From: Candidatus Heimdallarchaeota archaeon
Lineage (GTDB): Archaea > Asgardarchaeota > Heimdallarchaeia > Heimdallarchaeales > Heimdallarchaeaceae
DNA: 64,000 nt
Assembly (NCBI GenBank): GCA_021399345.1
Contig: JAAFKI010000175.1
Coordinates: forward strand, 35,233-99,232
Direction: 5' to 3'
Shown in pieces: positions 1 to 2,538 of the stretch (positions are counted from its first letter, which is position 1; every line of letters starts with the position of its first letter). The notes beneath the pieces are model-generated. The model did no database searches, was not told the DNA's origin, and worked only from the letters and a program-made list of their open reading frames with translations. The translations under genes were made by a program, and so were the position numbers.

Positions 1-1924
1 AATTTCAGGAAGTGAAATTTATGACTATCGAAGCAAGTAATAAACAAAAACAATCAGCATCTGAAGACAAGAATCTGGTAAAACATGGAGAAGTCAAAAG
101 CACAACTCAAGCACCATTAGCTACATTCTATGAGGTTATACCTTTGAGAATCAAGACGGAATTAATGTCTGTTCGAGAGTGTGAAAGGTTGCGAAGAATA
201 ACCGAAAGAGATACTAGAATCATCCAGCACTACCTTAGAATCATCAAACACAATGAGGAGAAAATTCTACGAAAAGATGGTAAAGTCAACACTTCCCTTC
301 TGGATAATTTGACCCTAACCACTTCTTTGAACACGAAGAACAAGTTACGAACTTCCGTTCCTCACGACTTGAAGAAGCGTTATCCCCGTTGTTCACATGA
401 TGAATTCCAAGAATGCAGAGACAAAGCTATTTGGACTTACGAGAGTTGGAAAGCACAGCAAGATGTTTCTAAAAAGGAACTGAGTAGACCTGAATTCAAG
501 AAGAAAACTCCTCGACCCATGTTCAAAGGAAAAGAAGGCAGAGGTACTTTTCAGATACATTTCAAACTTGATAATACTGATGCTAGACTTTGGCTGGAGT
601 TAAGGGATTCGCTTGATACAAAACGATCTGACACTCGAACCCATCAGAGACTATGGCTACCATTAGCTTACTCACCTTACCATGAAAAGAGGTTGAAACT
701 AGAGAACATCAAGATGGTGGAACTAGTATATAAATCCAAAGAACAGCAATGGTGGGCACATTTTACCCAACATATTTCTGTCCCAAGTTATCAATCCACT
801 CTTTCACCTGCAGTGTTAGGAGTAGATCTGGGAATAAAGAAAACAGCTGTTGCTGTGTTACTTAATCCTACAGGTAAAGTAATCATGGATGAAATCCGCT
901 TTATCGTTGATAAGGAGAGGCAGTCAAAAATATGGCAACTTAGTAGACAGATCAAAGAAACTCAGAGGAAGTTGAATAAAAGTCTCAACAACCGTCAGCA
1001 TACTAAACAGCTTAACAATACACTCTTCCGTCTACGTAGAAGACGACGTTCTATTACAGAACAAGAACTAGGATTTGCAGTTAACCAATTGGTTGATTTC
1101 ATCCTTCAGTTGAAGAAGAGGTATAATCTGTTTGTGTCTGTTGGCTATCCTAAGTATATCCAGAGACGTCAACCTCGAGGTAGTGGAAACAAATCCTTAC
1201 GTAAGCAAGTGCATAAGTGGTGTTATCGCTACTTTATCATTAAGCTGAGAAACCAGCTAGCTAAGTATGGATTTGAACCGTATCGAGTGGTAGCTGTTAA
1301 TGAAAGTTGGACCTCTAAAAGATGTTCCAGATGTAATTCTACAAACACTACCCGTACAGGACAAGGACAGTTCAATTGCCATGATTACAACTACGAACTA
1401 GATGCCGACTTGAACGGAGCAAAAAACATAGGGAAGAGGTTGATTAGGTATGCGTTAAAACCAAACTTCAGCAGTATCAAAGATCTACTGACAGAAGAAT
1501 GCTATCCTATACAACACTACAAGTGTTTCCTGCCCTTAGGTCAATGGCTTAAGTGATTCTGCAAAGAATACATCGTTTAGTAAAATTCGGTGTGCGAGGT
1601 CAAGAATCCGTCATCTCACTAATTAGACTGATTCGATAATGAGTGACCTTAATCAGGAGATGATTCCTTTGAACAGCTTGCTGTTCCAGAGACTGGTACT
1701 GTATTTTATGAGAGGTTTTTCTTTTCATTACTTACAGTTTCGTACGACGACAATCCATGCCACGCCAGTTTAGGAGGAGTTTTGAAAGAATCTGCTTGAA
1801 AACTTAGGTTTTTGTGTAGAGACTAACTCATCATAGGCCAGGCTTAACTACAAATTAAGTCTGACTACAACCTCTCCCTCCTTTTTTCTTTTACACTTGT
1901 CGTTTAGTATAACGAGAAACTCAA
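1..1924 (+). mobile_element. right part of a tnpB-carrying IS200/IS605- or IS607-like element; left end lies outside the window
   Basis: tnpB plus structured 3' region ending near GAGAAAC-TCAA (1914-1924). No transposase visible in the window. Confidence 0.5.
12..1556 (+). CDS. tnpB: TnpB/Cas12f/Fanzor-superfamily RNA-guided endonuclease, RuvC-II-rearranged type
   Basis: RuvC-I VLGVDLG (D272), bridge-helix region, canonical RuvC-II position reads VSVGYP (G378), VNESWTSKRCSRC (E431, C438, C441), CHDY (C456, Y459), RuvC-III DADLNGAKNI (D466). Start may be ATG at 21. Confidence 0.9.
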   Translation: MKFMTIEASNKQKQSASEDKNLVKHGEVKSTTQAPLATFYEVIPLRIKTELMSVRECERLRRITERDTRIIQHYLRIIKHNEEKILRKDGKVNTSLLDNLTLTTSLNTKNKLRTSVPHDLKKRYPRCSHDEFQECRDKAIWTYESWKAQQDVSKKELSRPEFKKKTPRPMFKGKEGRGTFQIHFKLDNTDARLWLELRDSLDTKRSDTRTHQRLWLPLAYSPYHEKRLKLENIKMVELVYKSKEQQWWAHFTQHISVPSYQSTLSPAVLGVDLGIKKTAVAVLLNPTGKVIMDEIRFIVDKERQSKIWQLSRQIKETQRKLNKSLNNRQHTKQLNNTLFRLRRRRRSITEQELGFAVNQLVDFILQLKKRYNLFVSVGYPKYIQRRQPRGSGNKSLRKQVHKWCYRYFIIKLRNQLAKYGFEPYRVVAVNESWTSKRCSRCNSTNTTRTGQGQFNCHDYNYELDADLNGAKNIGKRLIRYALKPNFSSIKDLLTEECYPIQHYKCFLPLGQWLK

Positions 1925-1965: not shown

Positions 1966-2538
1966 TTAATCTAACCCAAATTCTACTCTCTTTCGTTCTA
2001 CATCTTTCATTAGTTCCTGCGCAAAGGTTCTGAATGCATCCTCTACTTTTTCACCTGTTTTTGCTGATGTAATAAAGAAAGAATCTTTTGGTATATTTAA
2101 CTCTTGAATAATGGTATCAATATTTTCTTGTGAAACAGCAATTTGTTCATTTAAATCTGCTTTGTTTCCTATAAGGAAGTATATTGCATCTTCTTCAACA
2201 CTCTCTAAACCTTTCTTCCATGCTTTCAAAGAACTTAAAGTGTTATTTCTTGTGAGATCATAAACTAAAAAACACCCTCTTGCTCCTCGATAGAATTTTT
2301 CTCTAACTGATGCAAATCGTTCTTGTCCGCCTATATCACTTATTAGAAACAACACTTCATCATTTTCAACAAATAATTGTTTGCTTAGAATGTCTACTCC
2401 TATTGTCATAAGATATGATGCTTGGAATCGGTTGTGTACAAATCTAGTAATAAGAGAGCTTTTACCTACTCCTGGGTCTCCTAGTAGAACTATTTTGAAA
2501 ATATACTTCTTGCCTTGCCCCTCGTCTTCAGTCATCAT
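1966..2538 (-). CDS. Rab-like small GTPase (eukaryotic signature protein)
   Basis: FKIVLLGDPGVGKSS, TIGVD, DIGGQERF, FYRGA, GNKADL, TSAKTG. No C-terminal prenylation Cys. Confidence 0.93.
   Translation of the reverse strand: MMTEDEGQGKKYIFKIVLLGDPGVGKSSLITRFVHNRFQASYLMTIGVDILSKQLFVENDEVLFLISDIGGQERFASVREKFYRGARGCFLVYDLTRNNTLSSLKAWKKGLESVEEDAIYFLIGNKADLNEQIAVSQENIDTIIQELNIPKDSFFITSAKTGEKVEDAFRTFAQELMKDVERKRVEFGLD

Follow-up and report, generated by a model that had tools for sequence, protein, structure and literature searches.

The window analysed here is a stretch of 64,000 nucleotides from a Candidatus Heimdallarchaeota archaeon (assembly GCA_021399345.1, contig JAAFKI010000175.1, positions 35,233 to 99,232; G000:C115:35233-99232 in our own numbering), and its left end carries a gene, tnpB, which encodes a TnpB-type RNA-guided nuclease of a Heimdall-group archaeon. 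The gene is followed on the same strand by a candidate omegaRNA scaffold, a segment at the guide position and a probable terminator, and this module forms the right end of a strain-specific island that lies beside a tRNA-Asp(GTC) gene. While TnpBs with a rearranged RuvC-II site are already known as a class, the guide-position segment of this locus copies the very tRNA-Asp gene that adjoins the island, which is new.

The tnpB gene and its predicted active site

The tnpB open reading frame (ORF) was placed at positions 21..1556 of the forward strand, with an ATG start and a product of 511 aa, on the basis of homologues, Pfam and NCBIfam profiles, an AlphaFold2 model and Foldseek matches. The frame is free of stops from window base 3 to 1556 and extends upstream past the window edge, where a further in-frame ATG is found at window -6 (L001:1483); the start at 21 is favoured by the homologues and by the Shine-Dalgarno-like motif GGAAGTGA. 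Residue numbers refer throughout to the 514-aa version that starts from the GTG at 12. The protein matched PF07282 (Cas12f1-like TNB) at 1.5e-12, with 47.9 bits against a cut-off of 26.3 bits, and the NCBIfam model guided_TnpB at 3.4e-25, where its 89 bits lie under the curated cut-off of 100 bits. A search of the PDB with the single sequence gave an alignment limited to the zinc-finger region, and a family profile reached solved Cas12f and TnpB proteins at 1e-42 to 1e-14. The AlphaFold2 model, built from 68 homologues, has a mean predicted local distance difference test (pLDDT) score of 89.6 and a predicted template modelling (pTM) score of 0.82, with disorder confined to residues 1-26. Its near full-length Foldseek matches include AsCas12f, OsCas12f, ISFba1 TnpB and ISDra2 TnpB (probability 1.0 to AsCas12f, ISFba1 TnpB and ISDra2 TnpB), and mimivirus Fanzor2 follows at rank 17. 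The greater length compared to typical TnpBs and the C-terminal tail, both pointed out in the original prediction, are real, residues 483-514 being folded in the model.

Within the 68-sequence alignment, RuvC-I Asp272 (GVDLG; 825..827, forward strand, as for all codons given here) and RuvC-III Asp466 (DADLNGAKNI; 1407..1409, its GAC codon read directly) are invariant, together with C438, C441 and C456. The column of the canonical RuvC-II glutamate is occupied by Gly378 (VSVGYP; 1143..1145), which ends the beta-strand 372-379, and a relocated, predicted catalytic Glu431 (GAA; 1302..1304) stands directly after the beta-strand 426-430, six residues ahead of the first CxxC; both residues are at least 90% conserved. 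Two canonical TnpBs in the same alignment (P0115 and P0118) read ...IALENL... and ...IDPRNTSKAC... in the 378 and 431 regions, with Glu and Pro in the respective columns, and solved Cas12f proteins likewise have Pro at the place of Glu431 in the PDB search alignment. When 198 relatives of at least 330 aa were aligned with MAFFT --add, 177 showed the combination D-G-E-D and 10 showed D-E-P-D, and mixed forms (E/E or G/P) did not occur among them. RuvC-I reads DLG in 171 of the 198 and DPG, a marker of Fanzors and pro-Fanzors according to Yoon et al. (PMC10711439), in none. The description of the site that had been given from the window alone, i.e., two intact aspartates, a glycine in place of the canonical glutamate, an alternative glutamate ahead of the zinc finger, and DLG rather than the DPG of Fanzors, therefore holds in all four points. 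The position of Glu431 agrees with the ExxxxxxCxxC pattern by which Yoon et al. defined the rearranged glutamate of Fanzors and pro-Fanzors (PMC10711439), and the shift from Gly378 amounts to 53 residues, as compared with the "about 45" residues given by Jiang et al. (PMC10530073).

The predicted catalytic triad consists of Asp272, the relocated Glu431 and Asp466, which could converge in the folded protein. Judged from sequence, a large clade has conserved this triad, which makes catalytic activity of the lineage probable. The claim of a potentially active nuclease is, however, less safe for the copy in the window, since the fourth ligand of its zinc finger (C438, C441, C456 and Y459; 1323..1388) is a tyrosine, which renders the activity of this copy uncertain. 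The Y459 codon, TAC at 1386-1388, lies one transition from TGC, and the position is Cys in 27 of 27 close family members, including a paralogue on contig C64 of the source genome. Among the 106 columns with at least 90% conservation, P265S is the only departure besides C459Y.

A structured RNA and a guide-position segment after the gene

Nucleotide conservation continues for about 275 nt beyond the stop codon and breaks off sharply at ...AGAGAATAACTCAT (1831) in a comparison of 14 loci, the sequences beyond the equivalent of 1831 being unrelated among them. RNAalifold predicted 55 pairs in eight helices for this region (1557..1831, forward strand), in which an invariant ATGAGT (1639-1644) pairs with the terminal ACTCAT (1826-1831). 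In this scaffold, 95.6% of the cells are paired, compared to 30-49% with slid partners, and changes on both sides were observed in 18 pairs versus 7.1 +/- 1.9 in shuffles, none of 500 shuffles reaching 18. The region after the gene, which the original prediction had proposed to express together with the protein, thus contains a structured RNA that is supported by covariation. By its conservation and position, it would be a candidate omegaRNA scaffold, followed by a guide; Rfam returned no family for this region or for the conserved region 5' of the gene.

The segment at the putative guide position, CATAGGCCAGGCTTAACTAC (1832..1851, forward strand), is a copy, in 19 of 20 positions, of the complementary strand of tRNA-Asp(GTC) positions 6-25. 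Further downstream (1857..1892, forward strand) the window copy has a tail that is shared with the C64 paralogue (AAGTCTGACTAC) and then a pyrimidine/oligo-T tract. Of 16 loci, 10 have such a pyrimidine/T6 tract 22-55 nt after the scaffold, compared to 0.5% of random 80-nt stretches of the source genome, and it probably represents a terminator of archaeal type. AARTCTGACTWC, directly before the T tract, is common to the window copy and the C64 paralogue, so that both have conserved sequence before and after a variable stretch of about 26 nt. The guide of the C64 paralogue has no match in the source genome, and its single match with three mismatches in 25 genomes is at chance level.

Near-copies of the guide-position segment were also seen close by in three other loci, i.e., 47 nt downstream in L015 (7836-7901), 274 nt downstream in L010 (7325 and 7598) and, as an inverted near-copy of about 90 nt, 5.2 kb upstream in L009 (7863 and, on the minus strand, 2680). 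These near-copies are far above chance, and their geometry is inconsistent.

A strain-specific island beside tRNA-Asp(GTC)

The window starts inside an island of 5,998 nt (G000:C115:31120-37117), whose right part covers positions 1..1885 and whose left part lies upstream. Five close relatives do not have this island; at a flank identity of 81-97% (93-97% for the four closest), 32 other letters stand between C115:31119 and 37118 in them, homology picking up again at window 1886. An identical empty joint is present in contigs (X2 and X4) of two sediment or seep metagenomes. The empty site of the relatives was located via the GTPase gene downstream. The island contains an AbiV-like HEPN gene, a small membrane ORF, a remnant of a HerA-like ATPase (its 90-aa C-terminal piece), a metallophosphoesterase gene upstream of tnpB that has no orthologue in the genus and, at its right end, the TnpB module.

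A weak tRNA-like (tmRNA-clan) Rfam match near the left end of the island led to a tRNA-Asp(GTC) gene on the opposite strand, whose 5' end the island adjoins. Here, the guide-position segment (1832-1851) is a 19/20 copy of the intron-less tRNA-Asp allele found at the empty site of the relatives, which reads ...CCCAT and then CATAGGCCAGGCTAAACTAC. Identity to the tRNA gene extends over 22 of 23 positions; it begins inside the final three scaffold bases and ends after one guide length. The source genome's own allele carries a 31-nt insertion exactly at the end of the match that would be proximal to a target-adjacent motif (TAM), so that it matches the guide in only 17 of 20 positions and has a different 5' flank.

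With regard to the tRNA gene itself (G000:C115:30990-31119, about 4.1 kb upstream of the window start), we observed one intron in all relatives and the extra 31-nt insertion, in the D-arm region, in the source genome, G024 and G006, none being present in G018, G013 and G009. The longer allele is miscalled by ARAGORN as a tRNA-Cys with a 44-nt intron.

CAT is a candidate TAM: it stands at the left boundary of all nine aligned copies of a 12-copy sister subfamily in Heimdallarchaeum, and the intron-less tRNA-Asp target is preceded by CCCAT. GTCAT is found at the left boundary of the loci that are linked to a HerA-like ATPase gene (see below). At a third locus used for the comparison of boundaries (L075), the intergenic DNA is too diverged to show one.

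Copies of the family and their mobility

All named homologues come from metagenome-assembled genomes of the Heimdall and Thor groups. The source genome, which is 88.6% complete, has 21 genes with a TNB domain and three members of the family, namely the window copy and those on contigs C64 (82% identity) and C121 (44%). The close subgroup occurs in 9 of 25 genomes of the genus with one to six copies each, every one of them at most 84% identical to the window copy. Two proteins that lie on several contigs (P0044 and P0003) were considered as multiple copies and rejected, as these contigs represent the same site in different assemblies.

A sister subfamily of 38% identity is present in 12 dispersed copies, 83-100% identical to each other, in the complete genome of Ca. 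Heimdallarchaeum endolithica (G041, C1). These copies have sharp ends, with a left boundary between N and CATG... and a right end ...AAGTAAATCAT, and unrelated flanks, and because of these dispersed, sharp-ended copies the TnpB family at large can be said to behave as an insertion sequence. This 12-copy element is good material for determining the TAM and the ends of the family. Three of its copies contain internal stop codons, and a long GA-rich stretch precedes the start codon.

A transposase that would mobilise the window copy was not found: Y1 transposase (PF01797) is missing from the source genome and from the other 24 genomes of the genus, no recombinase stands beside the TnpB at any locus listed, and no solo ends or miniature inverted-repeat transposable elements (MITEs) of the element were found in the source genome. 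The single Y1 TnpA of Heimdallarchaeum has no ends of the family on its flanks.

Linkage to a HerA-like ATPase

At several loci, tnpB is preceded by a gene for a membrane-anchored HerA/FtsK-like ATPase (DUF87) of about 900 aa. In three of them (L012, L013 and L015) the stop codon of the ATPase gene falls inside the first bases of the conserved region upstream of tnpB, in two (L004 and L056) the gene ends about 85 nt before this region, and C-terminal remnants of the ATPase lie at the same place in L007, L008 and L009 and 1.6 kb upstream in the island of the window. Metagenome contigs of near relatives have C-terminal ATPase codons directly ahead of the conserved region, one of them without the phosphoesterase gene. 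The identities of ATPase and TnpB roughly co-vary between loci, and among ATPase 3' ends that lack a TnpB, we saw no clear empty site. Two readings fit the linkage, namely a single old insertion at the ATPase stop codon that was inherited ever since, or a functional pairing in a larger element.

The ATPase family itself (about 800-950 aa; e.g., L012:2971-5703, L015, L013, L020:5711-8128 and L021:3182-6010) has N-terminal membrane helices, a HerA/DUF87 core and a weak TrwB-like match, and each genome contains two to three diverged paralogues, usually followed by a TnpB. The conserved region between the ATPase stop and the tnpB start is hairpin-rich, spans about 300 nt and lies mostly outside the window (C115:34937-35243; its end at window 1..20, forward strand). 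From window -295 to 11, it comprises two hairpins, one of 22 bp that is nearly invariant (GGTGGTTCCTCTACTGG...CTAGAAGAGGAACCA) and another that covaries, which are candidates for a 5' untranslated region, a second RNA or a protein-binding site.

Relation to known RNA-guided nucleases

Several known systems resemble the window TnpB in some respects and differ in others. Among them are the RuvC-II-rearranged TnpBs (TnpB2/RIIr, e.g., TvTnpB of Thermoplasma volcanium), which share with it the glycine at the canonical glutamate position, the compensating glutamate about 50 residues downstream, just ahead of the zinc finger, the NADxN/DADxN motif of RuvC-III, the archaeal hosts and an omegaRNA 3' of the gene (a candidate one here). 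Unlike typical members of this class, the window TnpB is about 100 aa longer, has no TnpA nearby and is associated with the gene of a HerA-like ATPase. Its identity to the closest rearranged proteins found outside Asgard archaea (P0116, P0117 and P0119) is at most about 27%. Altae-Tran et al. described two major clades and eight large branches with a RuvC-II rearrangement, i.e., an exchange of Glu for Gly together with a compensating Glu, several of these branches being confined to archaea (PMC10691335). Consequently, the rarity that had been ascribed to the rearranged site was not borne out. That such enzymes can be active is known from TvTnpB, a rearranged archaeal TnpB (E323) that cleaves DNA in vitro, and from ApmFz, in which the alternative glutamate was essential (E467A; Jiang et al., PMC10530073).

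Cas12f proteins gave the top profile matches (AsCas12f 8J12/7WJU and OsCas12f 9NZQ, at 1e-42 to 1e-38) and the best fold matches, at a template modelling score of about 0.65 on the target, and these matches cover almost the whole length. However, Cas12f retains the canonical glutamate and a P-x-x-TS motif, and in contrast to Cas12f, the window locus has a single guide position and no array (no CRISPR array was found in C115:30400-38400, nor any Cas1 (PF01867) in the source genome). With TnpBs of the IS200/IS605 type (ISDra2, 8EXA/8H1J), the locus shares the putative use of the DNA after the right end as guide position, a CAT at the left boundary, an unoccupied site as predicted target and, in the sister subfamily, multiple copies with sharp ends and no visible duplication. 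It differs from them by the lack of Y1 TnpA in the 25 genus genomes, the rearranged site, the few and diverged copies in the genus and the conserved oligo-T tract that follows the guide position.

Altae-Tran et al. also list two TnpB groups that are linked to Asgard archaea (PMC10691335). These groups (Cas1H-Asgard-1/2; Altae-Tran et al., 2023) likewise have Asgard hosts and, after tnpB, a hypervariable stretch between conserved sequences, albeit with other bracketing motifs and with Cas1 rather than a HerA-like ATPase as neighbour.

Likeness to Fanzor2 (ApmFz2, PDB 9B0L) is seen in the glutamate at E-x6-CxxC (Glu467 of Fanzor2 being shifted by 50 residues) and in the overall fold (Foldseek E 2.6e-11). 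Unlike Fanzor2 and Fanzor1, the window TnpB has a prokaryotic host and DLG for DPG, and its similarity to both, in sequence as well as fold, is weaker than to Cas12f and TnpB. The family profile matched Cas12f at 1e-42 to 1e-31, mimivirus Fanzor2 at 2e-21 and ISDra2 TnpB at 3e-14, and Fanzor1 gave no match to it at E<=0.01. In a FastTree phylogeny of 192 sequences, built without Fanzor sequences, the Asgard TnpB family forms a clade of 134 tips (support 1.0) inside a larger D-G-E-D set, and all ten sequences with the canonical site fall into an outgroup cluster of 23 tips outside that set. Since the canonical-site sequences are found outside the larger set, the rearrangement of Gly and Glu predates the Asgard family; on this sequence tree, it goes back to the ancestor of a much larger prokaryotic set, within which the family is nested. 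The rearranged site also occurs in Thermoproteota proteins (P0117). Viral contigs of IMG/VR yielded distant TnpBs only, of at most 29% identity, and no close viral relative.

Proposed working and alternative explanations

We consider it rather probable that the locus represents a rearranged TnpB with its own omegaRNA, whose guide targets tRNA-Asp, in an island that came to lie beside tRNA-Asp(GTC), and that the module descends from a HerA-like-ATPase/TnpB gene pair which is common in Heimdallarchaeia. According to this proposal, the transcript would comprise the scaffold of about 275 nt up to 1831, the next 20 nt or so as guide and the oligo-T tract as its end. The ribonucleoprotein, with Asp272, Glu431 and Asp466 as catalytic residues, could then cut DNA that carries a short TAM, possibly close to CAT, and the tRNA-Asp segment, i.e., the unoccupied, intron-less tRNA-Asp site. 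Cutting of this site might favour the retention of the island, or its copying-in by recombination, and would thereby amount to a form of homing. For the TnpBs of IS605 and IS607, Meers et al. reportedly showed in 2023 that cutting favours retention and copying-in by recombination.

Several observations weigh against this proposal. A relation of the guide to a nearby target was not seen at most other loci, where neither tRNA genes nor flanking direct repeats were found, and the uninterrupted target exists in only 4 of the 24 other genomes of the genus. Moreover, the scaffold itself ends in TCAT, and a bare CAT as TAM would cause the locus to target itself; the real TAM must therefore be longer than CAT or different. 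On its left side, the module is not flanked by the remaining half of the tRNA gene, so that a simple single insertion into the tRNA fails to explain the present arrangement, and the two ends of the island misfit one clean crossover. Recent mobility is not shown by the few and diverged copies in the genus, and the window copy has lost a zinc ligand that all 27 relatives retain.

These last points could also be read in favour of an immobile remnant in which gene and RNA are decaying, the nuclease is idle and the tRNA-like 23 nt are a leftover repeat of an attachment site. Besides C459Y and P265S, both at positions conserved in the family, the reduction of the linked ATPase to a 90-aa piece, the phosphoesterase gene inserted between this piece and tnpB, the lack of a Y1 transposase in the genus and the absence of near-identical copies would fit such a relic, and tRNA genes are common integration sites of Heimdallarchaeum mobile elements, which leave repeats there (PMC8813620). 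Nevertheless, we regard it as unlikely: an intact ORF of 511 codons shows only two departures at strongly conserved columns, the RNA retains 95.6% of its pairs and the island is young, being absent from relatives with flanks of 93-97% identity. In addition, the repeat starts at most 3 nt from where the scaffold ends and has the length of one guide, which need not be the case for an arbitrary attachment-site relic. Quite unlikely, in our view, is an option in which TnpB is a fixed part of a larger conjugative or integrative element around the membrane-anchored ATPase and serves this element, e.g., by cutting its attachment site in element-free DNA. The ATPase genes or remnants ahead of tnpB (L012, L013, L015, L004, L056, L007-L009 and the window), the metagenome contigs of near relatives with their ATPase codons, the rough co-variation of the two proteins and the position of the island at a tRNA gene that equals its guide all speak for such a partnership. 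The Heimdallarchaeum sister subfamily, however, is a plain insertion sequence with 12 copies and has no ATPase at the one locus for which neighbours are listed, 9.6 kb separate ATPase and TnpB on C64, and C194 has the ATPase without a TnpB. Furthermore, neither an integrase nor other shared genes were found around the loci, and adjacency could as well stem from an old insertion at the ATPase stop codon (GTCAT), inherited with the gene.

A related and equally improbable view is that the module is the terminal part of ATPase-bearing integrative elements and the guide slot an exchangeable, bracketed spacer that carries the attachment site, laid out as scaffold, about 26 variable nucleotides, and conserved tail with terminator, the site being the 5' half of tRNA-Asp. 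If true, the nuclease would police or drive the integration of multi-gene islands by cutting element-free tRNA alleles. Far less plausible still is a specific relationship of this Asgard lineage to eukaryotic Fanzors, be it as relative or as ancestor, for which the relocated glutamate at the E-x6-CxxC position of Fanzors and pro-Fanzors and the Asgard host could be cited. Against it stand the lack of DPG in all relatives, the ranking of Cas12f and TnpB above Fanzor2 by profile and fold with Fanzor1 undetected, a rearrangement that predates the family and is shared with a much larger prokaryotic set (Thermoproteota P0117 included), and the lack of an IMG/VR relative above 29% identity. Published trees, moreover, derive Fanzors from bacterial TnpBs of the IS607 type or linked to IS630 (PMC10711439). 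On these indirect but concordant lines of motif, profile, fold and rearrangement, a Fanzor-specific relation is not supported, and the special bearing on Fanzor origins suggested in the original prediction finds no support either: as a member of a large, catalogued prokaryotic class, the family would have no bearing on the origin of eukaryotic RNA-guided nucleases.

Returning to the proposal of a tRNA-Asp-targeting TnpB, its interest lies in the fact that guide, target and both the occupied and the empty tRNA-Asp site can be read from the genomes and metagenomes of one population. In this context, a compact and well-modelled Asgard TnpB family of about 510 aa with a defined boundary between scaffold and guide is also ready material for TAM screens. 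The recurrent linkage of TnpB and a HerA/FtsK-like ATPase, which is unreported and occurs in a genus without Y1 transposase, raises the question of how, and for whom, Asgard TnpB nucleases work.

Neighbouring and related genes

The first gene of the island is the AbiV-like HEPN gene (G000:C115:31567-32364; Pfam 1.3e-16), and the island thus carries a candidate abortive-infection defence gene; PADLOC gave generic HerA and Cas12f-like matches only and no known defence system. Genes for Ras/Arf-like small GTPases lie 0.2-2 kb downstream of family members at three unrelated loci (window 1966-2538 on the minus strand, L003:3-158 and L048:9238-9804), and the ATPase paralogue on C194 is also followed by a GTPase paralogue. 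This proximity may be due to chance, such genes being numerous in Asgard genomes.

Further TNB-domain proteins of the source genome include a separate group of four ORFs of about 645 aa (C89:7023-9116, C88, C129 and C4). For one of them, a serine-recombinase fragment that contains an in-frame TAA lies 1.8 kb upstream, pointing to a family of the IS607 type. About 14 more TnpB genes of the source genome encode proteins of 410-450 aa.

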